Of a DNA stretch of 13,235 nucleotides, positions 1 through 13,235 are shown one piece after another. Under the pieces are notes generated by a model. It saw only the letters and a program-made list of their open reading frames with translations. It had not been told where the DNA came from and searched no databases. Within the stretch, counting starts at the first letter, position 1. Every line of letters begins with the position of its first letter. Source of the stretch: a virus (lineage: Duplodnaviria; Heunggongvirae; Uroviricota; Caudoviricetes); the IMG/VR virus record IMGVR_UViG_2778260996_000018. One strand, given 5' to 3'. Position numbers and translations under genes: made by a program.

Positions 1-198
1 GTGGCGGCCTCAGTCCGGAACAATTTGAAAACAAGAACCTCGCTTAGGCCTGTGTCCATATTACGTGGGTAGGATCACGCAGGGGTCGGCCCATTTGAGC
101 TTCAGATAGGAACGTTTGAATTCCTTTCACAAAATACATCACATACTGAACGTGAACATTCCCACTTTGATCTTAAGGCCAAAAAGTATGCAGGACTA

Positions 199-1917
199 AT
201 GATTTTTAGGGATAGCTTGAGAGTATTACCTTATGGTCGAGTAGATAATGATTTCTTCCAGATAGAAGAAAGACGTTCATGGAATGCAGGGCGATATTAT
301 TGGTCTAATAGAAGGATTTTTGGTTATATTGGAATTACTCAATCCAGTAATAAAGAGCTGAAAGATAAGTCGGGGAGAGAGGGATTCATAAGAAACCAGG
401 CTGCAAGAGAACTGAAAACTATTATATCTAATTTGTTAACTGAACTTGCTGATAGATTTTTTGGTTCACGTTCTGATGACCGTAAAGAGCTTTTAGAACA
501 AGTTAAGCGTGAAAAAGAGTTAAGAAAATCTGCTCAACAACAAGCTCGAAAATCAACACAAAAAAGTTTTTCAGAAGCTTTGAAGAATCAGACACCAGTT
601 CTTGATGCTTCCTTGGAGGCTGTTAAAAGGCTGAAAACTAAGCTTGATAAAACTGATGGTTCGTTAGATTTAAACTATCTTAAAATTATAGACAGTGATC
701 TTACAAACTTAGATGCGTTGCGCAGTGAAATTAAAACGCCTATCAAACCTCCAAAACTTGGAATGTATGAAGAGAAATATAGAGACTACAGAGATAAATT
801 TAATGAGTTCTCTGCGTATATTCTACAAATGAAGTTAGCAATTAATAAACTTGATTCTGAATTAAATAAACTTGAGCCTTCATTGTCAGCGAAAAATCAC
901 CTTGAAAAAAATCAAGGTATTATTAATTCTAAACTAACTAAGTTTAATAACACGATAGAGGAGAAGATACATTCTCTTTTAAAAAAATGGGCCGATGAAA
1001 TAAAGGTTGATCGAAGTGATTATTATGCTAAAACTATATCAGTTGTTGATTCAATAGATAATGATTCACAAATTGAAAATGTGTTTAATTTGCTCGATAG
1101 TTTATATGTTGAGTCAGTTGATACCCTAACTTTCAAATATCAATCAATAATAAAAGGTCTCGATAGATTATTTGAAGGTATAAACTTAGATTCAGCATTC
1201 TCATTATCTGAAGAAGAACGCTCATATTTTGAAGAAAAAGCTAAAAGTTTAAACGCGCTTGCACAGTTAGGTATTAGTGTTGAGATAATATCTCATGAAC
1301 TTGAAGAAATGGATTCTATGGTAACCAGAGGACTAAACTCTCTTCCTACTTCTGTAAAAGAACACCCTGGTTTTTCATTGGCGTTAAATGCTCACAGATC
1401 GCTTACTCAACAAATACGTTTCTTATCACCTTTGAAAATATCAGGTTATCAATCCAGGCAGAGAATAACTGGAAAAAATATCATGGATTATGTCCTGAAG
1501 TTCTTTGGGGAGCGTTTCGAACGGCAACGAATAACTATTGAATTTAGTGAAGAGTTTAAGCAAATCGCAATAACAGATATACCATCAAGGATCTATCCTG
1601 TTTTTACTAATATTATCAACAATGCAATGTATTGGGTCAGTCTGTCAAATAATAGGCTCATAAAGATTGGTTTTGTGAATTCTTTGGTTATCATAGCAAA
1701 TTCTGGTCCGGCAATTGATACCGATGATATCCCGCGACTATTTGAACTATTTTATAGCAAAAGAGCAAATGGACATGGGGTAGGTCTGTATCTATGTCGA
1801 GAAAACCTTGCTGTTGCACATCATAAAATATGGTATTCAGAACCTGATGAAGGCGATAACTATTTAATAAAAGATGACGCTAATTTTGTGATCCAGTTCA
1901 ATGGAGTGGAGTTCTAA
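199..1917 (+). CDS. Cytoplasmic sensor histidine-kinase-like protein (unknown N-terminal region, long coiled coil, C-terminal HisKA + HATPase_c)
   Basis: 572-aa ORF. Motifs read from the translation in canonical order: H-box-like ISHELEEMDS, N-box FTNIINNAMYW, G1 IANSGPAID, F-box-like FELFYS, G2 GHGVGLYL. Central ~250 aa is K/E/L-rich (coiled-coil-like); no hydrophobic TM segment. AGGA lies 4 nt upstream of ATG 199. The frame is open without a start codon from 73 to 198, so a 5' truncation cannot be excluded. Confidence 0.75.
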   Translation: MIFRDSLRVLPYGRVDNDFFQIEERRSWNAGRYYWSNRRIFGYIGITQSSNKELKDKSGREGFIRNQAARELKTIISNLLTELADRFFGSRSDDRKELLEQVKREKELRKSAQQQARKSTQKSFSEALKNQTPVLDASLEAVKRLKTKLDKTDGSLDLNYLKIIDSDLTNLDALRSEIKTPIKPPKLGMYEEKYRDYRDKFNEFSAYILQMKLAINKLDSELNKLEPSLSAKNHLEKNQGIINSKLTKFNNTIEEKIHSLLKKWADEIKVDRSDYYAKTISVVDSIDNDSQIENVFNLLDSLYVESVDTLTFKYQSIIKGLDRLFEGINLDSAFSLSEEERSYFEEKAKSLNALAQLGISVEIISHELEEMDSMVTRGLNSLPTSVKEHPGFSLALNAHRSLTQQIRFLSPLKISGYQSRQRITGKNIMDYVLKFFGERFERQRITIEFSEEFKQIAITDIPSRIYPVFTNIINNAMYWVSLSNNRLIKIGFVNSLVIIANSGPAIDTDDIPRLFELFYSKRANGHGVGLYLCRENLAVAHHKIWYSEPDEGDNYLIKDDANFVIQFNGVEF

Positions 1918-3667
1918 TATGACAGTGGCAAATTATAATTCTCTTGTCCAGAAAACTTTCTGCGAAAATGCAATTCGTTCCGTTGTCATGATTGATGACG
2001 ATTTTCTGACGTATTCTGAATCAATCAGGGCGTTGAATAACGAAGTTGATTTAGACTACAACAAAATTGACTCATCTAAACGAGCCGCTACTCTTGAGAG
2101 CTTTTTTCAATCTAAAAATATGATTTGTGATGTTGACAATGGTTCTGTTAATTTCGATGTGGATCGGATTAGAAAATCAGATCTTATTATTGTAGATTAT
2201 CATCTTGATAATAATGCACCTGATAAAACACTTAAACTATTACAAGATTTGAAAGACTCCGATCATTTAAATATGATTGTAATATATACTAGAGAGAATT
2301 TAGAAACGGTTTGGATGCAGATATCATCGACTCTCAAAGGTGCTCTGGATATCAACAGCTTGATCATTGACTACGATAATGAAGATGTCCAAAGTTATTG
2401 GGAAGACGTTGTATTACCGAACTTAAATGATAATGGTAATAAAGCTCTCACAAGAGATGAAACAATAGCCTATATTAAAGACAGTAAGCCTTGTAGAAGA
2501 ATTAAAAGATTAATACATGATGATGCTGTGTTGGAGGAACAAAAGGATAAAAACTTCATTGCAAAAATGATTGCAGAATATGCTGTGTCTAGAAATGCAA
2601 TTATTTCTAGCAACACATCTGGCAATGTCATTCGGGGTGATGAAAGCGGAGTAAAATGGATTCAATGTGGTAATATCTTTGTCTCCCTATTTCATAAGGT
2701 TCAAGATGATCATGAAAACGATGGAGATAGGATTTGGCAAACTCTCAATGATTCTCTCATTGAATGGAAACCATCTTATTATCAGTTAATAAAATCTGAA
2801 ATTCAGAATGCAATCGAAGCTGAGGCTTTATCTTTTGTAAATCATTTGGCTAACGATCATTACGGTCAAGCTGCGTGGTTAAATGAGATATTAAAATCAG
2901 ACTCGCCTGATATTAGATGTAGAAATATTGACTTTGTATTTGGTAATTTATCAGAAGAGCTTTATCAAAGACTTAAAAATAATAATACGCTGGATGAATT
3001 TATCAAAAGTGTTTTTGATAGCTATTCAAATGAATACGCTAACAGCGGAGTTGCTGCATTGCTCCAATATTGCTCTTCAAAAATGGATCTGCCATCAAAT
3101 AATGATACTTATCACGAAATGTATCATGCTTTAAATATGAATTTGTCTTCAAAGAATTTTGAAGATGGTCATATTTCTACTGGCACTATTTTCTTTGATA
3201 CAGAGTCGAACAAATGGTATTTATGTGTATCTGCGGCATGTGATTTGGTTCCTACTCAGGGTAACGACCCTCACCATGTAAGATTAAGTCCGCACAGGCT
3301 CATTAAAGTTCTGGAGCTTTTTAACGCCAGTCAGAGTAAAGCATTGCCATTTGCTGAACATTCGAAATATATATATGTAATGCATAAAAATCAAAGAAAA
3401 TATCTCTCTATTTTCGAAGGGGATAAAACGCTTCCTGTTGTTGATTATATGGTGGTGTTGAATCATGGAACAACAGTTGATGGCGAAGAAAAAAATATTA
3501 TTTCTGCCGTGTTTTTAAGTAATATGGATGGCAACGTGCAAAATGTTCCTGTCCGACTCAAACTTAAATCTCAACTGAGAACTGGTTATGCAGAAAGATA
3601 TCAGGCTATAGCGTCTCAGTATAGCTCAAGGATTGGTGTGGATTATGTATCAATGATGCTACCATAA
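1901..3667 (+). CDS. Receiver (REC) domain protein fused to a ~430-aa uncharacterised C-terminal output domain
   Basis: 588-aa ORF. N-terminal receiver signature in order: VVMIDDD (acidic pocket), DLIIVDYHLDNN (phospho-acceptor Asp), NMIVIYTRE (conserved Thr). No HTH or other motif recognisable in the C-terminal part. Overlaps the kinase gene by 17 nt; the alternative start ATG 1919 sits just after the kinase stop and is preceded by GGAGTGGAG, so it may be the true start. Confidence 0.7.
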   Translation: MEWSSNMTVANYNSLVQKTFCENAIRSVVMIDDDFLTYSESIRALNNEVDLDYNKIDSSKRAATLESFFQSKNMICDVDNGSVNFDVDRIRKSDLIIVDYHLDNNAPDKTLKLLQDLKDSDHLNMIVIYTRENLETVWMQISSTLKGALDINSLIIDYDNEDVQSYWEDVVLPNLNDNGNKALTRDETIAYIKDSKPCRRIKRLIHDDAVLEEQKDKNFIAKMIAEYAVSRNAIISSNTSGNVIRGDESGVKWIQCGNIFVSLFHKVQDDHENDGDRIWQTLNDSLIEWKPSYYQLIKSEIQNAIEAEALSFVNHLANDHYGQAAWLNEILKSDSPDIRCRNIDFVFGNLSEELYQRLKNNNTLDEFIKSVFDSYSNEYANSGVAALLQYCSSKMDLPSNNDTYHEMYHALNMNLSSKNFEDGHISTGTIFFDTESNKWYLCVSAACDLVPTQGNDPHHVRLSPHRLIKVLELFNASQSKALPFAEHSKYIYVMHKNQRKYLSIFEGDKTLPVVDYMVVLNHGTTVDGEEKNIISAVFLSNMDGNVQNVPVRLKLKSQLRTGYAERYQAIASQYSSRIGVDYVSMMLP

Positions 3668-3680
3668 TTATTATATTTTA

Positions 3681-3720
3681 GGCGTGGTGATTTTTTTTCG
3701 CCATGCCTATTTTATATTTA
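3681..3720 (+). terminator. Possible weak intrinsic terminator after the receiver-domain gene
   Basis: ggcgtgg (3681-3687) can pair with ccatgcc (3701-3707) including one G-U pair, followed by a T-rich run tattttatattta. The loop is long and U-rich, so this is atypical. Confidence 0.3.
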
Positions 3721-3738
3721 TCATCACAATGATGTTGT

Positions 3739-4155
3739 TTATTTTTGTTTAAGTCTTCTAAGCTTCATGCATTCTAATGAGAATAATAATAGAGTTGTGC
3801 TGTATATAAAGCCAGAGTTAGTTAATAACTTTAAATTTAATGCTTCAGGATTTTCACTGAGAAAGTGAAAGGCATAAACTAAGTATACAGCTAAAGTAGC
3901 CGTTCCAATTGTTGGTCCAATATCGCCTTGATCATGAGGTTCAAGGTTTACATTGAACTTGAAGATTAGCCATTCAAATCCCCAAGTAAAAAAAACAACT
4001 AATATCATGGCTGCGAATAATTTCGCGATGTTATCTGCTGATGGATTCATCAGAACAGATTGTTTCTGAAAAAATTCACAAAGTGAGAGTCCGAAAAAAA
4101 TAAAAAAAAGTGGTCTGGAACTAAATTTTTCAAAAACTTTGAATAGGGTTTCCAT
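3739..4155 (-). CDS. Small polytopic membrane protein (about 4 predicted TM helices), function unknown
   Basis: 138-aa ORF with four hydrophobic stretches (PLFFIFFGLSLCEFF, LFAAMILVVFFTWGFEWLIF, GPTIGTATLAVYLVYAFHFL, GFIYSTTLLLFSL). Starts 38 bp downstream of the integrase stop on the same strand, with a GAAGG-like sequence upstream of the ATG. Confidence 0.5.
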   Translation of the reverse strand: METLFKVFEKFSSRPLFFIFFGLSLCEFFQKQSVLMNPSADNIAKLFAAMILVVFFTWGFEWLIFKFNVNLEPHDQGDIGPTIGTATLAVYLVYAFHFLSENPEALNLKLLTNSGFIYSTTLLLFSLECMKLRRLKQK

Positions 4156-4193
4156 TTTCTTTACCTTCAGGATTATATTAGCTATTCTGATAC

Positions 4194-5465
4194 TTAGGCT
4201 ACCAGAGCATTTGATCTTTGAGCTTGAACGTAATCACTCCACCATTGCATCAAACTCTGTCGCTCTATCAGATATTCTGCACGATTGTATGCTGCGATAA
4301 TTTCATCTTTTTTCGAGTGGGCAAGCGCTGCCTCAAGAACTTCAGCTCTGAATTTACCAGACTCCTCTGCCGCTGTTCGTGCAATAGAACGCATACCGTG
4401 AGCTACAAGCTCGCCTCCGAACCCCATTCGGATGATAGCTGCGTTGGCTGTTTGTTCATGCATATGATTAAGAGGCGCTTTTATGCTGGGGAAAACCCAT
4501 TCTCTATGCCCACTTATTGATTTCATTAATTCAAGGATGCGCAAAGCTTCTTTACTCAAAGGAACTTTGTGAAGCTTTTTCATTTTCATGAAATCAGCAG
4601 GAATGTTCCAAATGCTGTTGGTTGTATCAATATCAGACCACCTTGCGCGAACGGCTTCACCCGGACGAACCCATGTCAACAATTGCCATTCAATTAGCAT
4701 ACGTGTTTCCAACCGGATTGACGCATTCGTCAAAGATTCCATAAACCTTGGCAATTCGCTTGGGGGAAGGGCAGGCATATTTTGCTTTTTTGGTTTACTG
4801 AATCTTTGACCAAGGTTGTCAGCCGGGTTGAACTCAATAAGTTCTTCAGTAGCTGCCCACCGGAAGATTTCATTCAGACGTGAAATGATACGGCGTAGAG
4901 TTTCCAATACGCCTCGTTGCTCAATAGGATCAAGGTGTTGTTTTAAGAGCTTAGGTCGGATCTCATTGATAGGGACATTACCCAGACCGGGAAAGACATT
5001 TCTCTCTAAGCTGCGCCAGATGTCTGCTGCATGGTCTTGTGAGATACCTGATGTCTTTACCTTCTCATCTAACCATTTCCGCGCTACGGCTTGGAGAGTG
5101 TGCTCAGTAGCACTCTTTAATGCCTTCGCCTTATCGTTGTTATGGATTTGGGGATCAACACCATTTGCCAGAAAGGAGAGATATTCATCACGTAAGGCTC
5201 TGGCTCTTGCAAGGGTAAGGTGAGGATATGTCCCAAGGCTCATTTTGGTTCTTTTCTTGCTCACTGGTACTGCATACCTGAAATACCAATTTTTCTTGCC
5301 TCCTTTCGCCAAAGGAGCGATTCGTAGAATCAGACCATCACCGTCAAACAAGTTGATTTCTTTATCGGCTGGCTTGGTGCTTTTGATTTCAGTGTCAGTG
5401 AGCTTCTTAGCGATTTTTGCCATTTTGGGACCCTCGGTTTTTGGACCCTTCTTAGTGGGTCCCAT
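4194..5465 (-). CDS. int: P4-type tyrosine site-specific integrase
   Basis: 423-aa ORF. N-terminal arm-binding-type motif (LTDTEIKS..KP..KEINLFDGDGLILRI..GKKNWYFRY) typical of P4-family integrases; C-terminal catalytic region with VAHGMRSIARTAAE (H-x-x-R) and the terminal tyrosine region IIAAYNRAEYLIERQ. The more likely start is the internal ATG at 5423 (MAKIAKKLTDTEIK), which has a GAGGG Shine-Dalgarno; the first ATG at 5465 has none. The start points at the ssrA remnant, as with intA next to ssrA in E. coli K-12. Confidence 0.9.
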   Translation of the reverse strand: MGPTKKGPKTEGPKMAKIAKKLTDTEIKSTKPADKEINLFDGDGLILRIAPLAKGGKKNWYFRYAVPVSKKRTKMSLGTYPHLTLARARALRDEYLSFLANGVDPQIHNNDKAKALKSATEHTLQAVARKWLDEKVKTSGISQDHAADIWRSLERNVFPGLGNVPINEIRPKLLKQHLDPIEQRGVLETLRRIISRLNEIFRWAATEELIEFNPADNLGQRFSKPKKQNMPALPPSELPRFMESLTNASIRLETRMLIEWQLLTWVRPGEAVRARWSDIDTTNSIWNIPADFMKMKKLHKVPLSKEALRILELMKSISGHREWVFPSIKAPLNHMHEQTANAAIIRMGFGGELVAHGMRSIARTAAEESGKFRAEVLEAALAHSKKDEIIAAYNRAEYLIERQSLMQWWSDYVQAQRSNALVA

Positions 5466-5588
5466 TCAGGGTGCCATAACTCGTAGTTCTCAGCAATTCT
5501 CACTGGACGACAATAGACGTAAAAAAGCCCGCAGAGCTTGTGCTGTGTGGGCTTAGTAGACTTCATTGAACTTCAAACAACTAAAAAG

Positions 5589-5624
5589 TGGTGGAGCTGG
5601 CGGGAGTTGAACCCGTATCCGAAA
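5589..5624 (-). other. Remnant of the 3' end of ssrA (tmRNA): attachment-site repeat, not an intact gene
   Basis: tggtggagctggcgggagttgaacccgtatccgaaa matches the reverse complement of the E. coli tmRNA 3' terminus (T-arm, acceptor 3' strand, CCA) with 2 mismatches, from memory. Sequence beyond 5625 has no resemblance to the rest of ssrA (no tag-peptide region). Confidence 0.8.
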
Positions 5625-5881
5625 AATTCTTAACCAATTGAATATTAATGATTTTTCTAATTTAAAATACCTCACGTGCATTTTACGTGCATATTGTAGT
5701 ACCTCTAACGTCCTGATTCTGTCCAACATTTTGAAGTGTTTAGGCGCCACTGGGGCGGTGATTAGCGCTGTTTTGTGCTGTTCATAGCACTTCAAGACTA
5801 TTCAATTCAGAGCAATCGTTGAAGAATTACCCGTAAGGTAATATCATACTATTTAGGTAACTGCGGTTATCACCATCAAGG

Positions 5882-5918
5882 GCCACTGATGACGCTGTTA
5901 TCATCAGTGGCTTTTTGT
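5882..5918 (+). terminator. Intrinsic (rho-independent) terminator-like hairpin with no obvious upstream plus-strand gene
   Basis: Perfect 11-bp stem gccactgatga / tcatcagtggc with 8-nt loop cgctgtta, followed by ctttttgt. The reverse complement is not followed by a T-tract, so it is plus-strand specific. Confidence 0.6.
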
Positions 5919-5958
5919 ACCTTCACTGCACAGCCAGTGAAGTGTTGAGGAGACTAGC

Positions 5959-6300
5959 ATGAGAACAGTAGCGAGAAGATCGATACAGACGATTGAGCGT
6001 CGGACTCAACTCGTCAGTTCTTTTGTTGACTCAAACACAGCAAACGAGTTCTTCGTGAGAAGACTGAGTGATCGTGTCTCCCCGGCACGTCAGCTGTTTA
6101 TTGTGACATTGAACAATGAGGTTCGTGACGGTGACGTGATCCCGTTCGCTGAGATCGCCATGAACAAAGAAAAATTGCGCTATGTTGTGAAGCCAGCAGA
6201 TCAGTATCCTCAGTATGTAAGCAGTAATCTGCTGAAGAAAATTGAAGCGGCAATTGCTCTATACATGCAGAAGAACTACAGGGAAATTAACTACCATTAA
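5959..6300 (+). CDS. Hypothetical protein, first gene of a two-gene moron operon
   Basis: 113-aa ORF with GAGGAG Shine-Dalgarno 7-13 nt upstream of the ATG; followed 11 nt later by the next ORF. No family recognised. Confidence 0.55.
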   Translation: MRTVARRSIQTIERRTQLVSSFVDSNTANEFFVRRLSDRVSPARQLFIVTLNNEVRDGDVIPFAEIAMNKEKLRYVVKPADQYPQYVSSNLLKKIEAAIALYMQKNYREINYH

Positions 6301-6311
6301 AAGGTTGCTGA

Positions 6312-7079
6312 ATGGCTCCTGCGTTAATACCTTCATATAACAAGGACTTGAACATTACGCCATTTGGCGAAAAACGTCTTATTGAGTCATTCTATTTTTT
6401 CACTGCCGAGGCTGGCTTACTGAGGGCTGATGAGTACATTGTCAGTTCTGGTGAGTTTCAGTACTACTTGGATGTGTATCAACTGGGATGTTCCACCGAC
6501 GACTTTTTTTTAGACTATGGCAGTGACCTTCTTGATTCGAAGGTTCCAATGCAGGATCTGGTCAATACCCTCTTGGGTCTTGATATGGTAGACGATAACA
6601 AAACGATAAGAATAGGTCGTATACAGTTCAACGACTTTAATTTTATCGAAGAGAACGGTCAGATGATGACCGGAAAGCAAGTGAAAAGCGCTGTTATCGC
6701 ACAGGATTTCCAATCAGCAGGTTTGGCGCGTGAGATCTATAAAATGCTTGCGCGAAAGCATGAGTTTCTCATCTGCGATAACATTCAAAGTATTGCCGGT
6801 GGTGCTCTTTGGGCTAGTAGCATCATTCGAATTGCCGAGGTACGGATCTACAATTCACGCACGAAGAAATTTATGGACATACTTGGTCCAGGTGCGCGTG
6901 GCGTTTCAGGTACTTTGCCATGGAGTGCGAATGATCTGTCTGTAGATGAGATTGTTCGCTGGGGTCGTGCGTATGATGATGAAAACTGTTGTCGTCACAT
7001 TGTACATGTTATCTGTAAGGACCGACTCATTGACGATCAATTTCATGATTATGTTTCGATAGGTGGCGCGACAGAATAA
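6312..7079 (+). CDS. Hypothetical protein, second gene of the two-gene moron operon
   Basis: 255-aa ORF, soluble-looking, immediately followed by a strong terminator. No family recognised. Confidence 0.6.
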   Translation: MAPALIPSYNKDLNITPFGEKRLIESFYFFTAEAGLLRADEYIVSSGEFQYYLDVYQLGCSTDDFFLDYGSDLLDSKVPMQDLVNTLLGLDMVDDNKTIRIGRIQFNDFNFIEENGQMMTGKQVKSAVIAQDFQSAGLAREIYKMLARKHEFLICDNIQSIAGGALWASSIIRIAEVRIYNSRTKKFMDILGPGARGVSGTLPWSANDLSVDEIVRWGRAYDDENCCRHIVHVICKDRLIDDQFHDYVSIGGATE

Positions 7080-7084
7080 CCATC

Positions 7085-7115
7085 AAAAAGACCCGGCATT
7101 TGCCGGGTTTTTTCT
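7085..7115. terminator. Bidirectional intrinsic terminator between convergent genes
   Basis: aaaaag-a cccggc attt gccggg tttttt: GC stem with 4-nt loop, flanked by an A-tract upstream and a T-tract downstream. Sits between the stop of the 255-aa gene (7079) and the integrase stop (7121). Confidence 0.75.
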
Positions 7116-7120
7116 TCAAA

Positions 7121-8299
7121 TCACTTCTTCATTCCAGATTCCATTGCGGTTTTCCCGTCGTATTCAGCCAGGTATTTACCGTAATTGCGGAACAGCATTT
7201 CCGGCCCCTTATGCCCCATCTGCCCGGCAAGCCAGAAAAGGTTTACACCCTGGCTAATGTGTCTGGTGGCGAATGTGTGGCGCGTCTGGTACGGGTTACG
7301 GTAGCGCACACCAGCTTTTTTCAGGGTCGGCACCCATGCTTTTTTACGGATAGCGTCGGCGTTCGTCCAGGGATCTCCCGTTTTCGGATCGCTGAATATG
7401 AACTCACTTTTCATAAAGGTGTATTGCTTCTGCGCCTGCAGGGCCGCCAGCGCCTCACTGTTCAGCTCCACCTTACGGGTACCGGCTTTTGTCTTGGTGC
7501 CTTTAAGTACCCCTACGACACTGGCCGCCTGTATGTGCGCTGTATTACCTATAAAGTCGATATCGGTCCAACGTAATGCGCATAGCTCAGAGCTGCGTAG
7601 CCCTGTATTGAAGGCGAAGCGGAACAGATTCTGCCATTCCTGATACTTGCAGTGCTGATATATGGCACTGGTTTCCGCAGGCGCAAACGGATCAACTTCG
7701 TAATCGTCGGCGTTCGGTTTACTGTCGACCACGTGATACCGGCTGGCGCTGACAAGAGTTACCGGGTTAATAGTCAACAGGCCATCAGTTACAGCCTCAT
7801 CAATGGCGCTGCGCAGAAATGACAGGTTATTCCTGATTGTTTTCAGCTTAGTTTTTCGGCTGGCTATCCAATTTTTTAGTACCGCAGGCGTCAATTCTGT
7901 TACATGTAGTTTATGTAGTTCTGATAGTGCTGATAGACATTTTTCGTAACCGCCAATGGTTGACGGCGACAGATTGCGGTTCATGCAAATTTTCAGGTAT
8001 TCATCAAGATAGGACTTAATATTTTTGGTTTTCTTTACTACACCGAATAACTCCAGTTTTTTGGAACTGGGGAAATATTTCGCATATTCAAACGTTCCGC
8101 TGGCGATCTGATTTTGTATCTCCCCTAGCAGGCGCTCAGCATATTTAATACCACGTGTATTTGCCTCAAGCCGAGACAGGGGCTCCCTGCAAAGAACCCC
8201 TTTATATGTGAAAGTGATAACTAGTGTTGAAGCAGTTTTATGCTTACGAATAGTTACTCCTCTTGGCAGAGATAATAATCCTTGTTCTTTCTTGCCCAT
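7121..8299 (-). CDS. int: Lambda-type (phage) tyrosine integrase
   Basis: 392-aa ORF. Catalytic signature near the C-terminus: PYQTRHTFATRHISQGVNLFWLAGQMGHKGPEMLFRNYGKYL (R, H-x-x-R, H, Y). AGAGG Shine-Dalgarno upstream. Its 3' end faces the att remnant, as in lambda where int is transcribed toward attP. Confidence 0.9.
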   Translation of the reverse strand: MGKKEQGLLSLPRGVTIRKHKTASTLVITFTYKGVLCREPLSRLEANTRGIKYAERLLGEIQNQIASGTFEYAKYFPSSKKLELFGVVKKTKNIKSYLDEYLKICMNRNLSPSTIGGYEKCLSALSELHKLHVTELTPAVLKNWIASRKTKLKTIRNNLSFLRSAIDEAVTDGLLTINPVTLVSASRYHVVDSKPNADDYEVDPFAPAETSAIYQHCKYQEWQNLFRFAFNTGLRSSELCALRWTDIDFIGNTAHIQAASVVGVLKGTKTKAGTRKVELNSEALAALQAQKQYTFMKSEFIFSDPKTGDPWTNADAIRKKAWVPTLKKAGVRYRNPYQTRHTFATRHISQGVNLFWLAGQMGHKGPEMLFRNYGKYLAEYDGKTAMESGMKK

Positions 8300-8463
8300 T
8301 TTGAAACCTCTATTAAGTCGACCCAGCGTTCTTTAACTCCGTCGACTTTTAATACATGAACCCCTTCTTTCCATATTCCTCTTTGTATCCGTTTGTTAAC
8401 GGCATCAACCGTTTCTCCCGCGTCGCGGCAGTAGGTTGATATAGGCACGCAATCCAGCCCCAT
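8254..8463 (-). CDS. xis: Probable excisionase / small DNA-binding recombination directionality factor
   Basis: 69-aa ORF directly upstream of int and overlapping it by 46 nt (xis-int arrangement of lambdoid phages). Small basic protein; GAGGTGA Shine-Dalgarno. Assignment is by position and size, not by a recognised motif. Confidence 0.6.
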   Translation of the reverse strand: MGLDCVPISTYCRDAGETVDAVNKRIQRGIWKEGVHVLKVDGVKERWVDLIEVSKWARKNKDYYLCQEE

Positions 8464-8471
8464 ACATCACC

Positions 8472-8618
8472 TCACATAACACTCAGCCCACGGCAGTGGC
8501 ACCACACGTCAAACATTCGCTTCACAACTTCACGACAGTAGAAGCCGTCAACATCTCGCGTCAGGTTATAGCGATTGCCGTAACGCTGGTGGACCCATTG
8601 TTCAAATGCTTTATTCAT
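8472..8618 (-). CDS. Small Cys/His-rich hypothetical protein (48 aa), below the ORF-track size cut-off
   Basis: Translated by hand: MNKAFEQWVHQRYGNRYNLTRDVDGFYCREVVKRMFDVWCHCRGLSVM. GGAAG Shine-Dalgarno 6 nt upstream; start lies 3 nt after the stop of the upstream 92-aa ORF and its stop 8 nt before xis, fitting the coupled operon. Confidence 0.35.
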   Translation of the reverse strand: MNKAFEQWVHQRYGNRYNLTRDVDGFYCREVVKRMFDVWCHCRGLSVM

Positions 8619-8621
8619 TCT

Positions 8622-8900
8622 TTACTTCCTTTTTATGGCTCGTAATTTTTTCAGGTGCTTTTCCTGCTCAGTGTCCGCGAGAATTTTGCGGTACTCCTGG
8701 TGGTCAATATGTTCGAACAGGCAGTTTAACTCACCAATGCGTACCCGCCCGGATCGTCCGTCCATCCGTCGAAAGAACACTGAGTGCTCAGTGATGCGAG
8801 TAATCACCACGGGGTATCCGGCTCTGTCCGTGTATATCTGACCGCGTTGAATCAAAGCGAACATGTGGTTATCCCCATCGACAAATTGAGAACACAACAA
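8622..8900 (-). CDS. Hypothetical prophage early-region protein
   Basis: 92-aa ORF, co-directional and tightly packed in the early-left operon. No family recognised. Confidence 0.5.
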   Translation of the reverse strand: MLCSQFVDGDNHMFALIQRGQIYTDRAGYPVVITRITEHSVFFRRMDGRSGRVRIGELNCLFEHIDHQEYRKILADTEQEKHLKKLRAIKRK

Positions 8901-8987
8901 ACGCTACTGCGAATACCACCCCCAGAGTTACGATTGCATCAGGCCAGCTCATTGATTCACCTCCTGCGGCGTCCTGGTATTCGATTT

Positions 8988-9556
8988 TCATTCCGGATGC
9001 TCCTGAGCCACATTGAAATCGCCATGATCACGACAAGGCATCACAACAAATTCAGGATTGCCATACATTGAGTTGATGATGGAATCAAACTGAATTCTGA
9101 CCGCTTGCCCGTCACCGGAGGAACGTAACTGGACGGGAATAAATTTACGCTCACGACCAAACATCTTCTCTGGATAACTCAGGTAACCCGCCTGGATCAC
9201 CGGGTGTGTACAGAGGTCAAATTTTTTCGGAATGATGCGTTCCAAATCCGGAAAACAACCGTCCACCAATTTAATGCCGGTAATGGACAGCCGGCGCTGA
9301 AACTGGTCGCGATGAACAGGATCGGCTCTTTACTAAAAATCAGCTCTGTCGTTTCGGCTTTGGCCGGGACGCCACCTTCGAACTGGACAATGATGTTTTT
9401 CTTCGTCCGGATGCCGTGAGTCATGCGCAGTGCTACGAAACCATTGGTTGCCTCAATATGTTTTGGCGTGATGTGAAGACCGTTCAGGTAATAACGAACG
9501 TCGTTTTTAGCAGCGCACACCAGAGCGGCGCGAATAAGTTTTGACTGGATGATCAT
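8988..9556 (-). pseudogene. Sliding-clamp (DnaN, DNA polymerase III beta) domain II-III-like gene, split between two reading frames
   Basis: The N-part (ORF 9197-9556) contains DVRYYLNG, an exact 8-mer shared with E. coli DnaN as I recall it. The C-part (ORF 8988-9269 frame) contains KLVDGCFPD (DnaN: KLVDGRFPD) and EFVVMPCR (DnaN: AYVVMPMR) in the right order. The two halves are in different frames, separated by about 56-59 nt near 9287-9345 with in-frame stops. Confidence 0.5.
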
Positions 9557-10302
9557 GCTTTATCCTCCCATCCGATTACCTGAAAAAGCCCCATCTTCGG
9601 GTGATACCAGCGTGTGCCGCGTGGTTCAGCCTCTGACATCATTTGGTGGAACGCCGCCATAAATGTCTCAAGCTCGACGACAGCCCTGCGAGACAACAGA
9701 CCGTCCGGAGTCATAAATTCGTGCGTGTCGGTAGGGATGTGGTAGGCGTTGACCAGATTCCGACACTTGGCGTCACTCATTCCGCTTTTGGCTACCACCT
9801 GGCGGTAACCGACATATCCGGTGCGCATTGTGCCGCGTTTGATGTTCTCCACAGCTTTGGTGACCGTTTCGATCTTCTCTTCAACATGACTCAGGCGCTT
9901 CTGCTGGCGAACGGCATCGGCGGCCATTGCAGCGATCATCTCCATTTCCGTCAGCGGCGCGTGAGTTCGGAAATAGCTGTTAACCAGTTCGCGCTGAACC
10001 TGCCATGCAAGAGCATCGTTAAAAGGCTTCGTCAACATCAGGTAACCAGACTCGAAAAGAATGATCCCTTTGGCAGTTCGCGCGGCAAAGGCATCAGAAA
10101 GTGACTCCGTACGTATTACGTCCGCAGTCATTTCAAGAAAATCCACCCCTTCGATAAAGTGAGAACGGTTGCGGTTAAACGCAGCACGGGCGGTACCTTC
10201 CGGGCGCTGGTGGACGTCATCAATTATTGCAAATGTCACAACACGCTGACCGCGATATTCGATTACCGGAAACTGTTTGTTGTTGATGGTTACAATATTC
10301 AT
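9553..10302 (-). CDS. ORF6N-domain phage antirepressor-like protein
   Basis: N-terminus MNIVTINNKQFPVIEYRGQRVVTFAIIDDVHQRPEGTARAAFNRNRSHFIEGVDF resembles the ORF6N/antirepressor N-terminal domain. Start chosen at ATG 10302 (GGAG 6 nt upstream) rather than the ORF-track ATG at 10377, which would overlap the upstream gene. The stop overlaps the start of the clamp-like gene (ATGA). Confidence 0.6.
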   Translation of the reverse strand: MNIVTINNKQFPVIEYRGQRVVTFAIIDDVHQRPEGTARAAFNRNRSHFIEGVDFLEMTADVIRTESLSDAFAARTAKGIILFESGYLMLTKPFNDALAWQVQRELVNSYFRTHAPLTEMEMIAAMAADAVRQQKRLSHVEEKIETVTKAVENIKRGTMRTGYVGYRQVVAKSGMSDAKCRNLVNAYHIPTDTHEFMTPDGLLSRRAVVELETFMAAFHQMMSEAEPRGTRWYHPKMGLFQVIGWEDKA

Positions 10303-10345
10303 TTTTATCTCCAGACAGCCCGGCGTGTAATACCGGGCATATGTA

Positions 10346-11173
10346 TTACTTAACCTGAATAAATGGTGTGTTGGCACCGCTGGTCATGTATTGCGGCAGT
10401 GTACCGTTCCACTTGTTGATGGCTTCCAGCTCCATAACACCGGGGTTCTGGCGCAGAGCTTCACCGCGTAAACGAATAGCATCGGCTTCGGCCTGGGCTT
10501 TTGTGCGAATCGCATCTGCCTGTCCGGCAGCTTCCGCGCGCAACATGTTGGCTTCCGCTTCGCGCTGTTTTACTTCCTGCTCGCGTTGCAGGGTTTTCTG
10601 GTTCGCCGTGACTTTGGCATTAATGCTGTCGATAACAGTAGGTGGGTACTCCGGCTTACCCACATATGAGAGGCTCATTACCTGAATACCGATGGGCGTC
10701 ATTTCTTCCTGAATGTCTTTAAGAGCTGCATCCAGCAGCTCAGACTTGCCGCCGTCGATAAATTTGTCGGTGGTCATTTTGCTGGCCAGTCGGTTGAGTG
10801 CGTCGGCTATCTTCTGGCGCAGGTCGGTGTCGGTAATGTCGTCCACGCCTTTGCGGTAGGTCTGAAAGACTGTGGTAACTTTGGATGGATCAACTTTGTA
10901 GGCCACGCCGATGTGATAGCCGATGGTTGTACCGTCACTCATCTGGAAACTGAATGGATCATCGTAGGTCTTCATCTGCTTAAAGGTCGGGAAGATGTAA
11001 ACCTCAGTGTTCCATCCCGTCCAGTAGCGCCCAACACCGACCACTTCACCGACGCCTTTATCGTCGCCCAGTTTGTTTACTTTGATGCCCACATTACCAG
11101 GCTCAACGCGATCGCAACCGACAAGGCCAATGGTCGGCAGAACAAGGGCTAAAGCAAAAAGTAATTTTTTCAT
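10346..11173 (-). CDS. SPFH/Band-7 (prohibitin/HflK-like) domain lipoprotein
   Basis: 275-aa ORF. Signal peptide with lipobox (MKKLLFALALVLPTIGLVGC), SPFH-like core, and a C-terminal A/E/Q/R-rich coiled coil (QREQEVKQREAEANMLRAEAAGQADAIR...) as in HflK/HflC-type proteins. Confidence 0.8.
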   Translation of the reverse strand: MKKLLFALALVLPTIGLVGCDRVEPGNVGIKVNKLGDDKGVGEVVGVGRYWTGWNTEVYIFPTFKQMKTYDDPFSFQMSDGTTIGYHIGVAYKVDPSKVTTVFQTYRKGVDDITDTDLRQKIADALNRLASKMTTDKFIDGGKSELLDAALKDIQEEMTPIGIQVMSLSYVGKPEYPPTVIDSINAKVTANQKTLQREQEVKQREAEANMLRAEAAGQADAIRTKAQAEADAIRLRGEALRQNPGVMELEAINKWNGTLPQYMTSGANTPFIQVK

Positions 11174-11358
11174 CTTTTATCCTTAGAAAAAGAAAGACCC
11201 TTATAAATGGCATAAATGCAGGGCGGGGTCAGACACGCCAGAGCAAAGCCAGAAATCACTGCTACCGTATCCTTCATTGATATGAGGGCCGGAACGATTA
11301 ATCCGTAAATACATGTGATAATTGCCAGTGATATAACTATTCTGAAATAAATGTTCAT
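11170..11358 (-). CDS. Small two-TM membrane protein, translationally coupled to the SPFH lipoprotein gene
   Basis: 62-aa ORF with two hydrophobic helices (IVISLAIITCIYGLIVPALI, VAVISGFALACLTPPCIYAIY). Strong AGGAGG Shine-Dalgarno 4 nt upstream; ATGA stop/start overlap with the SPFH gene. Confidence 0.6.
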   Translation of the reverse strand: MNIYFRIVISLAIITCIYGLIVPALISMKDTVAVISGFALACLTPPCIYAIYKGLSFSKDKR

Positions 11359-11418
11359 GGTCCTCCTGATGTATTCGGCTTGCCTTATTTAATTGCGTCA
11401 TGGTTAATTTCGTTTACG

Positions 11419-11811
11419 TCAGAATGGTTTTGTTGCCATCAGTTCGTAATATCCGGCGCTCCATGTGTCATATTTTCTGAACCATTTTTCTGTATACTGT
11501 TTCCTGGCGATGAGTCTGCGCAGTCGTCTGATTGTTCGCTGGTGTGCGCGGGTATACTCTGTGGTTGATTCTCCACGTTTCCATATCTCATTCCTGTTGA
11601 AGATAAAACGCTTGTCAGGATAGCGTTGTCGGAATCCTGAACGTTCAAAAGCGCGGGTGGTCATAAAGAATGCCAGGTAACGAATTGCCGTTTTTCGGGT
11701 GAGGCATTTTTTTGTTCTTCCGTGGCGTGTTACAAAAAATAACGGGCCGACGGGTGTATCATGTTTCTGTAATGCCTGGTCAATGGTGCTGGCGGTGCGG
11801 TTGTCGATCAT
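11419..11811 (-). CDS. Hypothetical basic protein
   Basis: 130-aa ORF, Arg/Lys-rich; ATGA overlap with the upstream 72-aa ORF. No family recognised. Confidence 0.5.
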   Translation of the reverse strand: MIDNRTASTIDQALQKHDTPVGPLFFVTRHGRTKKCLTRKTAIRYLAFFMTTRAFERSGFRQRYPDKRFIFNRNEIWKRGESTTEYTRAHQRTIRRLRRLIARKQYTEKWFRKYDTWSAGYYELMATKPF

Positions 11812-12026
11812 TTCTTTATTTCTCCCGAATAACGTTCATGACTCATTACTTCCCAGTTCCGGCCGTCGTCTTTCGATAACAGCCGCCAGCGACGGTTAAC
11901 CTTCAGACTGAGATATCCGGTGCGCTGTATCCGATGCGGAAATATCCGTCGGCATCGGTACAACAACAGGACCTGCAATGCCTGCCGGTGGATCCGCTCA
12001 GGAATGCGTGTTGCTGTTAATGCCAC
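11808..12026 (-). CDS. Hypothetical small basic protein
   Basis: 72-aa ORF, Arg-rich, overlapping the upstream ORF by 29 nt. Coding status uncertain. Confidence 0.35.
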   Translation of the reverse strand: MALTATRIPERIHRQALQVLLLYRCRRIFPHRIQRTGYLSLKVNRRWRLLSKDDGRNWEVMSHERYSGEIKK

Positions 12027-12213
12027 CGGTTTCCTCCTGAGCAGGTGCTGTTATCTGATACCCCGCTCTTTCTGCCAGCCGTATGAATGTATCCATGCTG
12101 GCAATCAGCTCGCCATCGCGGACTTTGCAGACACCTGTGACTTGGCCATTTTCAATTGTCATAACGATCTGCACTTTTTCGTGCACAACAGATACAGGGG
12201 ATAAATTAGCCAT
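11998..12213 (-). CDS. Hypothetical small protein
   Basis: 71-aa ORF; its start overlaps the stop of the upstream 119-aa ORF by one nucleotide. Confidence 0.4.
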   Translation of the reverse strand: MANLSPVSVVHEKVQIVMTIENGQVTGVCKVRDGELIASMDTFIRLAERAGYQITAPAQEETGGINSNTHS

Positions 12214-12572
12214 CAGTTAATTCCTCCGCTGATATATTTTTCTTTCGCGTAATCAATAATCTCTTGAAAAAGGTTGTCTATAATTAACTTTCCGGTTTCA
12301 GTCAGGTATTCAGTATGTTGATTAATCCCGATAGCATTCTGGTATGCAGTGTGGATTTCGGTTTCACCCTCCACCCGGCCCAATTCACCACGGGTAATAC
12401 CTTCGAAGCGTAACAGCAACTGGTTTATAAACTGTTCAGTTATTTCTATGGTCGTAATGTTCCCATCAGGAAGGTCAACAATAAGCAGATTACCACCTGT
12501 TTTACGTTTTATTCGATGGAGTGCCGCAACAGCTATACGGCGACGATATGTATTAATGGGTTCATGTGTCAT
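12213..12572 (-). CDS. Hypothetical protein
   Basis: 119-aa ORF, first sizeable gene after a ~180-bp intergenic region. A 32-codon ORF ends 3 nt before its start. Confidence 0.5.
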   Translation of the reverse strand: MTHEPINTYRRRIAVAALHRIKRKTGGNLLIVDLPDGNITTIEITEQFINQLLLRFEGITRGELGRVEGETEIHTAYQNAIGINQHTEYLTETGKLIIDNLFQEIIDYAKEKYISGGIN

Positions 12573-12756
12573 TTGTTATTTCCCGTATGCTTTCCTGAGA
12601 AACAGTATTGCAACTGACCAGTATCCTGCATTAGCCATTAATAATGCGGTTTTATAAGCACTTCTGTTTTTCATGCATCACCACCATTTTCAGGTTGTGG
12701 AAATTCCCGACCAGAGACCGTTATGTTTTTATGGGTGATTGTTTATTGAGTTTTCT

Positions 12757-12948
12757 TTATTCGTTGCGCAGTGTGTCGATATACGCGTAAGCCATTTCAC
12801 AGGTTTTATTCATGGAGCGAATGAGGCAACATAAATAATCGTCTGTCTCTCCTGAGTCGGGCGAATTCTTAAATATAAATTCAAGCATTGATGTATTCTC
12901 TTTTATTTGTGCTGCCACTTCCTCAAGAATATTTAATGGAGTTTTCAT
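12757..12948 (-). CDS. Hypothetical small acidic protein
   Basis: 63-aa ORF, acidic, ATGA-coupled to the upstream ORF. Confidence 0.45.
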   Translation of the reverse strand: MKTPLNILEEVAAQIKENTSMLEFIFKNSPDSGETDDYLCCLIRSMNKTCEMAYAYIDTLRNE

Positions 12949-13125
12949 GTTCTTTGCTCCTTAAATGCATCGCATGCGCTTCTGGCGTATTGTTGTGCCA
13001 GTAAAAAGATATCATCCGAAAGTTCATCACATTCTTCATCACCGGAAGCCGAAATGATTAACCCCGCTTCAAGCAGTACGGCAATGTGATGAAAAGTTGT
13101 CTCCGGTTCGTTGGTAAGGCCTTTG
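12945..13125 (-). pseudogene. 5'-truncated gene fragment (small acidic protein) interrupted by IS1
   Basis: The ORF-track start at 13139 is a TTG inside the IS1 terminal repeat (13126-13139), so the first ~5 codons derive from IS1. The native protein has no internal Met, so its 5' end has been replaced by the insertion. Confidence 0.45.
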
Positions 13126-13235
13126 GGTGATGCTGCCAACTTACTGATTTAGTGTATGATGGTGTTTTTGAGGTGCTCCAGTGGCTTCTGTTTCTATCAG
13201 CTGTCCCTCCTGTTCAGCTACTGACGGGGTGGTGC
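13126..13235 (+). mobile_element. IS1 insertion sequence, left end (terminal inverted repeat plus start of insA), truncated by the window edge
   Basis: ggtgatgctgccaacttactgat... through ...cagctactgacggggtggtgc matches the IS1 terminus and insA 5' region as I recall it, including the part of IS1 carried in pACYC184 from Tn9. Confidence 0.85.
13181..13235 (+). CDS. insA: IS1 InsA, N-terminal 18 codons (partial; runs off the window)
   Basis: GTG start followed by codons for ASVSISCPSCSATDGVV, the known InsA N-terminus (zinc-finger region). Confidence 0.8.
   Translation, partial: MASVSISCPSCSATDGVV

Follow-up and report, generated by a model that had tools for sequence, protein, structure and literature searches.

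Displaced tDNA fragments and tandem arrays form the basis on which Islander maps genomic islands automatically, with the strongest enrichment among its targets being that of the tmRNA gene (PMC4383910). In such arrays the target gene is regenerated, displaced 3' fragments remain at the endpoints and the newest element lies beside the intact gene. In E. coli, lambdoid (Stx) prophages occupy the tmRNA gene ssrA in O111 and O121 EHEC (PMC2323221, PMC8767318). At the same gene, K-12 carries CP4-57, whose P4-type integrase gene (intA) follows ssrA directly, with a spacer and a terminator in between, while a short 3' fragment of ssrA (psaA, b4645) marks the other boundary; the annotated start of CP4-57 lies 15 nt before the ssrA end. 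The window analyzed here, a stretch of 13,235 nt from a Caudoviricetes record (IMG/VR IMGVR_UViG_2778260996_000018), resembles this arrangement, since it holds a P4-type integrase gene related to intA (48% protein identity), a homologous spacer with terminator, and a fragment of the ssrA 3' end. However, the K-12 psaA remnant comprises only ~14-16 nt, is degenerate (CTCCGCCAGCCCACCA) and lies at the distal end of a P4-type element, whereas the fragment in the window comprises 36 nt, arrived with a lambdoid phage, as argued below, and is found upstream of the P4-type integrase gene. The island to which this integrase gene belongs differs from CP4-57 as well: its cargo is another one (HATPase and receiver-domain proteins) and it is cut by an IS3 element. 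We conclude with high confidence that the 36-nt piece is the end of ssrA, displaced when a lambdoid phage inserted between this gene and a decayed P4-type island of older date.

The identity of the fragment is clear. Read on the minus strand from 5624 to 5589, it comprises TTTCGGATACGGGTTCAACTCCCGCCAGCTCCACCA, which matches positions 328-363 of E. coli ssrA, its last 36 nt, at 34 of 36 positions (blastn-short, E 6.5e-11). As reference served the intact gene of a related genome, annotated as tmRNA (L002 15917-16279). This confirms what had been claimed from the sequence alone, namely that the last ~36 nt of ssrA are present with two mismatches. The mismatches fall on window positions 5617 and 5616, at which the fragment has TA and ssrA has CG, and the second one breaks the first pair of the T-stem. 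If a 2-nt indel is allowed (GAATTT vs GAATTTTT), the similarity to ssrA reaches ~5 nt further upstream. No second copy of the 36-mer exists in the window, and 200 dinucleotide shuffles yielded zero matches to it at up to three mismatches. ARAGORN called neither a tRNA nor a tmRNA gene in the window, and the Rfam tmRNA model RF00023 reached 18.6 bits on the fragment, compared to a gathering score of 47. Thus we are dealing with a fragment derived from ssrA and not with a gene: of a functional tmRNA gene, 36 of 363 nt are present, and the full tRNA-like domain and tag reading frame are lacking. The sequence-only reading had named membership in a different tRNA-like gene as an outcome that would speak against it; the ARAGORN result and the strength of the ssrA match dispose of that concern.

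To the right, the fragment adjoins the arm of a lambdoid prophage, which from 5589 onward is 99.9% identical to the prophage of EPEC strain E110019. A phage-side non-coding stretch, the P arm (5625-5958), leads from the att core to two cargo ORFs on the plus strand (5959-7079) that encode 113 aa (5959-6300) and 255 aa (6312-7079) and are located between the integrase gene and the att site. Both belong to PHROGs families of unknown function (phrog_2594 and phrog_3307) and gave no Pfam, PADLOC or NCBIfam match. Prophages of the O26:H11 type possess a DUF4760 gene in place of both ORFs, and the interval between int and attR looks like a variable cargo slot. The prophage integrase gene (7121-8299, minus strand) encodes a tyrosine recombinase of 392 aa with an N-terminal arm-binding domain (Pfam Arm-DNA-bind_2, SAM-like and Phage_integrase; phrog_1 integrase) and is transcribed toward the att site. 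It was described from the sequence alone as a lambda-type integrase gene that ends ~1.5 kb from the fragment and points at it, and indeed its end at 7121 is 1497 bp away from 5624. The excisionase gene (8254-8463, minus strand; phrog_2917, E 2.5e-41) overlaps the integrase start, and both int and xis are intact ORFs. From its domains and the adjacent excisionase, the integrase is predicted to be of the lambda type, i.e., heterobivalent and arm-binding. Compared to solved structures it gave weak matches to Tn1549 Int and lambda Int, and to the latter it is only distantly related (E 6e-7, with the match spanning the core-binding region). The rest of the window (8464-13235, minus strand) comprises a lambdoid early-left region, recognized by Pfam and PHROGs matches and again 99.9% identical to the E110019 prophage. 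It contains an ORF6N anti-repressor-like gene (9553-10377, minus strand) and an SPFH/Band_7 gene (10346-11173, minus strand), which are shared with E110019 and partly with the phages phi467 and Fraca.

To the left, a P4-type island begins directly at the fragment. Its integrase gene (4194-5465, minus strand) encodes Arm-DNA-bind_3, Phage_int_M and Phage_integrase domains (Pfam), and with 440.4 bits it exceeds the cut-off of 434 of the NCBIfam model NF007246, which places it among the P4/CP4-57-type integrases. The longest ORF starts at 5465, 124 bp from the fragment, as had been noted before (~125 bp). However, the 48% identity to K-12 IntA extends over 408 aa and begins at residue 15, and the RefSeq annotation of an identical gene gives 409 aa; thus the true start is probably the ATG at 5423, 166 bp from the fragment. 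Directly upstream of this probable start, a tandem repeat (TTTTGGGACCCT and TTTTTGGACCCT) occupies 5423-5449, and K-12 intA carries TAGGCCCA repeats at the equivalent position. Both might represent arm-type or autoregulatory sites of the respective integrases.

Between integrase gene and fragment lies a spacer (5521-5588, minus strand) that directly follows the ssrA end and includes a terminator-like hairpin at 5521-5554, which resembles a rho-independent terminator. This spacer is borne by the island and homologous to that between ssrA and intA in K-12, and in phage-free strains it comes after the intact ssrA. Across spacer and fragment end (5521-5598, minus strand), the Rfam model of the small RNA IsrM (RF02763) produced a match with an E-value of 2e-12, yet at 53 bits compared to a gathering score of 376. 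The alignment covers the terminator end and a short 5' stretch only, its 3' part being the island-borne terminator, while 253 of the 329 model positions are absent. Consequently, an IsrM sRNA at this position was rejected, as the model ends alone match. The alignment suggests that Salmonella IsrM may itself be located at a homologous junction of ssrA remnant and P4-type integrase gene, with an extra insert of ~250 nt; a literature search on IsrM and integrases returned nothing useful.

The remaining island cargo (199-4155), assigned by Pfam and by the annotated context in O103:H2 strain PV16-126 and in strain 503025, comprises a HATPase_c/HEF_HK protein (PF19191; 199-1917, plus strand), a Response_reg_2 protein (PF19192; 1901-3667, plus strand) and a hypothetical protein of 138 aa (3739-4155, minus strand). 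PADLOC gave no credible match for the HATPase and receiver proteins or for the phage cargo ORFs. The HATPase and receiver proteins form an atypical kinase/receiver pair that is conserved in 503025, where the receiver accession is the same and the HATPase accession differs. In both PV16-126 and 503025 the island stops shortly beyond the left end of the stretch that corresponds to the window, at an IS3 element within a truncated ygaQ-like gene, and probably the distal end of the island was deleted there. Since the island is truncated at IS3, it has no distal ssrA repeat: beyond the fragment no second significant ssrA match was found in the window, in the 20 kb leftward in PV16-126 or in 503025, where only chance-level matches of 9-16 nt occur. 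Thus the further copies of the ~36-bp repeat that the sequence-only reading had proposed to use for defining the ends of each element did not turn up for the island. It is degraded, and its mobility is unlikely. Furthermore, its own integration event has no repeat pair that would document it, and the local structure by itself leaves the order of arrival of the two elements ambiguous.

The order of arrival emerges from comparison with complete genomes. The coverage of the window stays below 80% in every complete E. coli genome, and its sequence is a mosaic: positions 1-8979 are 98.2% identical to PV16-126, and positions 5589-13125 are 99.9% identical to E110019. In PV16-126, the order from the ssrA side is smpB-ssrA-DinI-like, espK, espN, nleL, tail, head, lysis, Q, replication and a cI/cro-like region, followed by xis, int, the two ORFs, the fragment, the P4-type integrase gene, the hypothetical gene and the receiver and HATPase genes. 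Beyond the latter, IS3, the truncated ygaQ and glaH are found, and then gabDTP up to nrdHIE. The fragment and the intact ssrA of PV16-126 share their orientation and are ~52 kb apart, with a single lambdoid prophage between them and ssrA at its far end. In E110019, the intact gene is 48 kb away from an identical 36-nt fragment, again in the same orientation, and the prophage has an IS3-family insertion where the window has position ~8818. Thus the claim that the intact ssrA lies outside the window holds for the closest complete genomes, where it is found beyond the corresponding stretch, at the far prophage end; the window stops 7.6 kb into the prophage. Judging from these relatives, ssrA would be located 48-52 kb rightward in the genome of the window itself. 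The similarity of E110019 to the window ends exactly at 5589, which corresponds to the CCA end of ssrA. Past the fragment E110019 continues with ATCATGATTGG..., a native flank of the K-12 type next to ypjA, as is found after psaA at the distal end of CP4-57. Since this flank is native K-12-type sequence, E110019 represents the phage without the island.

The opposite state, the island without the phage, is common. We joined the last 180 nt of ssrA to window positions 5588 to 5420 and compared this phage-free junction of 349 nt with 5426 complete E. coli genomes. At least 80% of it was covered in 983 of them, several of which were 100% identical over all 349 nt. Strain 503025 is one example, with the order smpB-ssrA-int-hypothetical-receiver-HATPase-IS3-truncated ygaQ-glaH. 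For the integrase, the hypothetical and the receiver protein, its accessions equal those of PV16-126, and its island shows the same IS3 truncation. In comparison, the P arm with the fragment (window 5760 to 5589) gave any match in 94 genomes and a coverage of at least 80% in 21, and the exact junction of phage, fragment and island was covered to at least 80% in nine. Thus all intermediate states exist in other genomes. As the phage-free junction is this common, and as phage-free 503025 shares both the proteins and the IS3 truncation, the island is the older and widespread resident and the prophage arrived later. The proposal that the remnant is the junction between an older island on the left and a prophage arm on the right is thereby borne out.

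One might argue for the reverse order, i.e., that the prophage came first and that the P4-type island later used the displaced fragment as a secondary attB. Judged from the att sequences given below, the local junction would be identical in either order, and the fragment retains the terminal ~16 nt that elements of the CP4-57 type leave as repeat in K-12. However, the abundance of the phage-free island, the scarcity of the P arm with fragment and the degraded state of the island all speak against it. In addition, in lysogens of the PhiR12 phages the phage entered an ssrA that already had an integrase remnant downstream. We therefore regard this order as very improbable. It is just as improbable that the array did not arise in place but was imported en bloc, or was reshuffled when the ssrA loci or the resident lambdoid prophages of different strains underwent homologous recombination. 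Such events would fit the mosaic of PV16-126-like (1-8979) and E110019-like (5589-13125) sequence, and lambdoid prophages are known to recombine frequently (PMC8767318). However, the similarity breakpoint of E110019 coincides exactly with the CCA end of ssrA, as site-specific integration predicts, and import concerns only how this strain obtained the array, and the origin of the fragment as att scar of an ancestral site-specific integration would be unaffected. Import en bloc is compatible with later entry of the phage beside a resident island, and both do not exclude each other.

The entry of the phage can be followed at nucleotide level in PhiR12_1 to PhiR12_5 (PV340549-PV340554), for which K-12 MG1655 or E. 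coli C are the recorded hosts. Their att-int-xis region is 99.0-99.3% identical to window positions 5560-8971. The record of PhiR12_5 opens with 1589 nt that match the chromosomal sequence beside ssrA in E. coli C at 99.9% identity and comprise an IS3-family element, part of a P4-type integrase gene and the ssrA end. Hence this GenBank "complete genome" (L003, PV340554.1) includes host flank at positions 1-1589; the remaining PhiR12 records begin at various points inside or beyond the att core. This provides a before/after pair, which rests on the GenBank records of the PhiR12 lysogens; a literature search on PhiR12 gave no relevant paper. In naive E. coli C, attB reads ...TTTCGGACGCGGGTTCAACTCCCGCCAGCTCCACCA followed by AATATTGATG, with the 5' part GGACGCGGG... 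and CCACCA before AATATTG. The int end of the lysogen, attR, reads ...TTTTTCGGATACGGGTTCAACTCCCGCCAGCTCCACCA followed by the same AATATTGATG, with the 5' part GGATACGGG... and again CCACCA before AATATTG. At the other end, attL reads ...CGCGGGTTCAACTCCCGCCAGCTCCACCA followed by CTTTTGATAGG, with CGCGGG...CCACCA. Together with the phage-free junction genomes, this pair supplies the empty sites with which a comparison had been suggested.

These sequences also resolve the origin of the two differences to ssrA. An identical 36-nt fragment adjoins this phage in PV16-126, E110019 and PhiR12_5, and the TA at 5616-5617 is the same in all copies joined to this phage arm, including the lysogen of E. coli C with its canonical ssrA. 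Since TA is present in the lysogen attR and absent from the naive attB, the TA differences and the extra TT are attP sequence carried by the phage and not the product of decay. Consequently, the copy is not an old one in decay, and its two differences are unusable for dating the integration. A block of 27 nt, CGGGTTCAACTCCCGCCAGCTCCACCA (5589-5615, minus strand), is common to attB, attL and attR. As TA and TT derive from attP, strand exchange must, on the evidence of these alignments, fall 3' of both, within this block. A comparison of the window with PV16-126 and 503025 agrees, with the identity being 5 nt longer there (CTTTT). The equivalent of the T-loop (TTCAACT, 5605-5611) lies between the T-stem arms and would be a natural symmetric core, so that the crossover may be placed there, in agreement with the attP sites that the Islander paper groups under 'T-stem region' (PMC4383910).

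Candidate arm-type sites are present as well. About 50 nt upstream of the fragment (5673-5692, minus strand), a tandem 11-nt repeat forms the 20-mer ATGCACGTAAAATGCACGTG. In PV16-126, PhiR12_1 and PhiR12_5, the opposite prophage end carries this 20-mer as well, with unchanged orientation and ~95 nt past the intact ssrA. E110019 carries a diverged version (ATACACGTGAAATGCACGTG). With one copy per prophage arm, the 20-mers are candidates for the P and P' arm-type binding sites of the integrase, a layout as expected for an arm-binding enzyme. The P' arm past the far-end ssrA of the window's prophage would accordingly be predicted to carry ATGCACGT repeats, attP would join window positions 5700 to 5589 to the ssrA-proximal arm, and a restored attB would read ssrA followed by CTTTTTAGTTG. 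As a side aspect, the P' arm past the regenerated ssrA (L002 16280-16480) is ~60% identical to L009 1487-1686 and L004 7801-8000 (z 8-9 compared to shuffles). This partner is the native E. coli flank found after psaA in K-12 and after the fragment in E110019. Either an older, related prophage left this flank behind as a remnant of its arm, or the phage acquired its attP from a host ssrA locus.

Two unrelated elements had been proposed to have used the same attachment site in series. They did use the same gene; however, the island has no repeat of its own, and the phage carries an ssrA-like block of 36 nt, 27 nt of which from the T-stem onward are identical, while CP4-57 leaves ~16 nt. Thus the two integrases probably use different sublocations in ssrA, and the comparison suggests the extreme 3' end for P4-type enzymes and the T-arm for the lambdoid enzyme. 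Williams (2003) reportedly came to the same conclusion.

From these observations the phage insertion can be reconstructed with high confidence. In the host cell, ssrA was already followed by a small, IS3-truncated, CP4-57-like island. A lambdoid phage, which bears in its attP an imperfect ssrA 3' end, then underwent site-specific integration at the intact gene. Recombination in the shared 27-nt block, which runs from T-stem and T-loop to CCA, rebuilt a complete ssrA at the far prophage end (attL). The int-proximal end kept a hybrid copy (attR, named in ssrA orientation), with a phage-derived 5' part that includes the two differences and a host-derived 3' flank, and this copy now abuts the island spacer, the terminator and the integrase gene. 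Its sole likely role is that of the attR core for prophage excision mediated by Int and Xis. Other roles could be imagined: transcription that starts in the phage arm might turn fragment, spacer and terminator into a short RNA with a tRNA-like end, or the fragment might act as secondary attB for joint excision or transduction of phage and island remnant. Nothing in our data supports either, and the probability of such roles appears very low. Finally, chance similarity, another tRNA-like gene or a decayed ssrA duplicate unrelated to integration, for which solely the shortness of the fragment speaks, is refuted by the shuffles, the highly significant ssrA alignment and the att sequences, in line with the absence of a gene call at the fragment and with its position exactly where similarity switches between genomes, and we consider it practically negligible.

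How does this locus compare with the described cases? Under the Islander/Williams definition, a displaced tDNA fragment matches the 3' part of its gene, an integrase gene lies within the interval, the intact gene is expected at the opposite end of the element with the orientation of the fragment, and relatives show an empty site. The fragment matches the 3' part of the tmRNA gene, the interval holds the integrase gene at 7121-8299 with its overlapping excisionase gene, and empty sites are given by the genomes with the phage-free junction and by the E. coli C pair. The cognate ssrA is found at the opposite prophage end in the same orientation in both closest complete genomes. As in Islander tandem arrays, the target gene is regenerated, a displaced 3' fragment lies at an endpoint and the newest element sits beside the intact gene. 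However, the strict definition of a tandem array expects every member to bring its own integrase and its own tDNA fragment, and the island of the window has an integrase gene and no such fragment. By this standard, it is a prophage beside an island remnant.

The ssrA prophages of EHEC and EPEC (Stx prophages in O111 and O121; effector-carrying ones in O103, O26 and E110019) share locus, prophage type and orientation with the one described here. Their T3SS effector cargo is located near ssrA, and int occupies the distal end. In contrast, the window comprises the int-proximal 7.6 kb only, and neither an stx nor an effector gene lies within it. The prophage may correspond to Sp17 of O157 Sakai. 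PhiR12_1 to PhiR12_5 share with the window the fragment with its two differences and the 20-mer of the P' arm, whereas their early region differs beyond window position 8971. The fragment fixes the int-proximal prophage boundary at 5589/5588 and sets the prophage apart from an unrelated, older island remnant. Its value thus lies chiefly in annotation: for pathogenic E. coli it is a further instance of ssrA as integration hotspot, and the picture of tDNA integration is unchanged. Taken together, compared with CP4-57, the Islander arrays and the ssrA prophages of EHEC and EPEC, the scar described here is of an ordinary and already well-documented kind.
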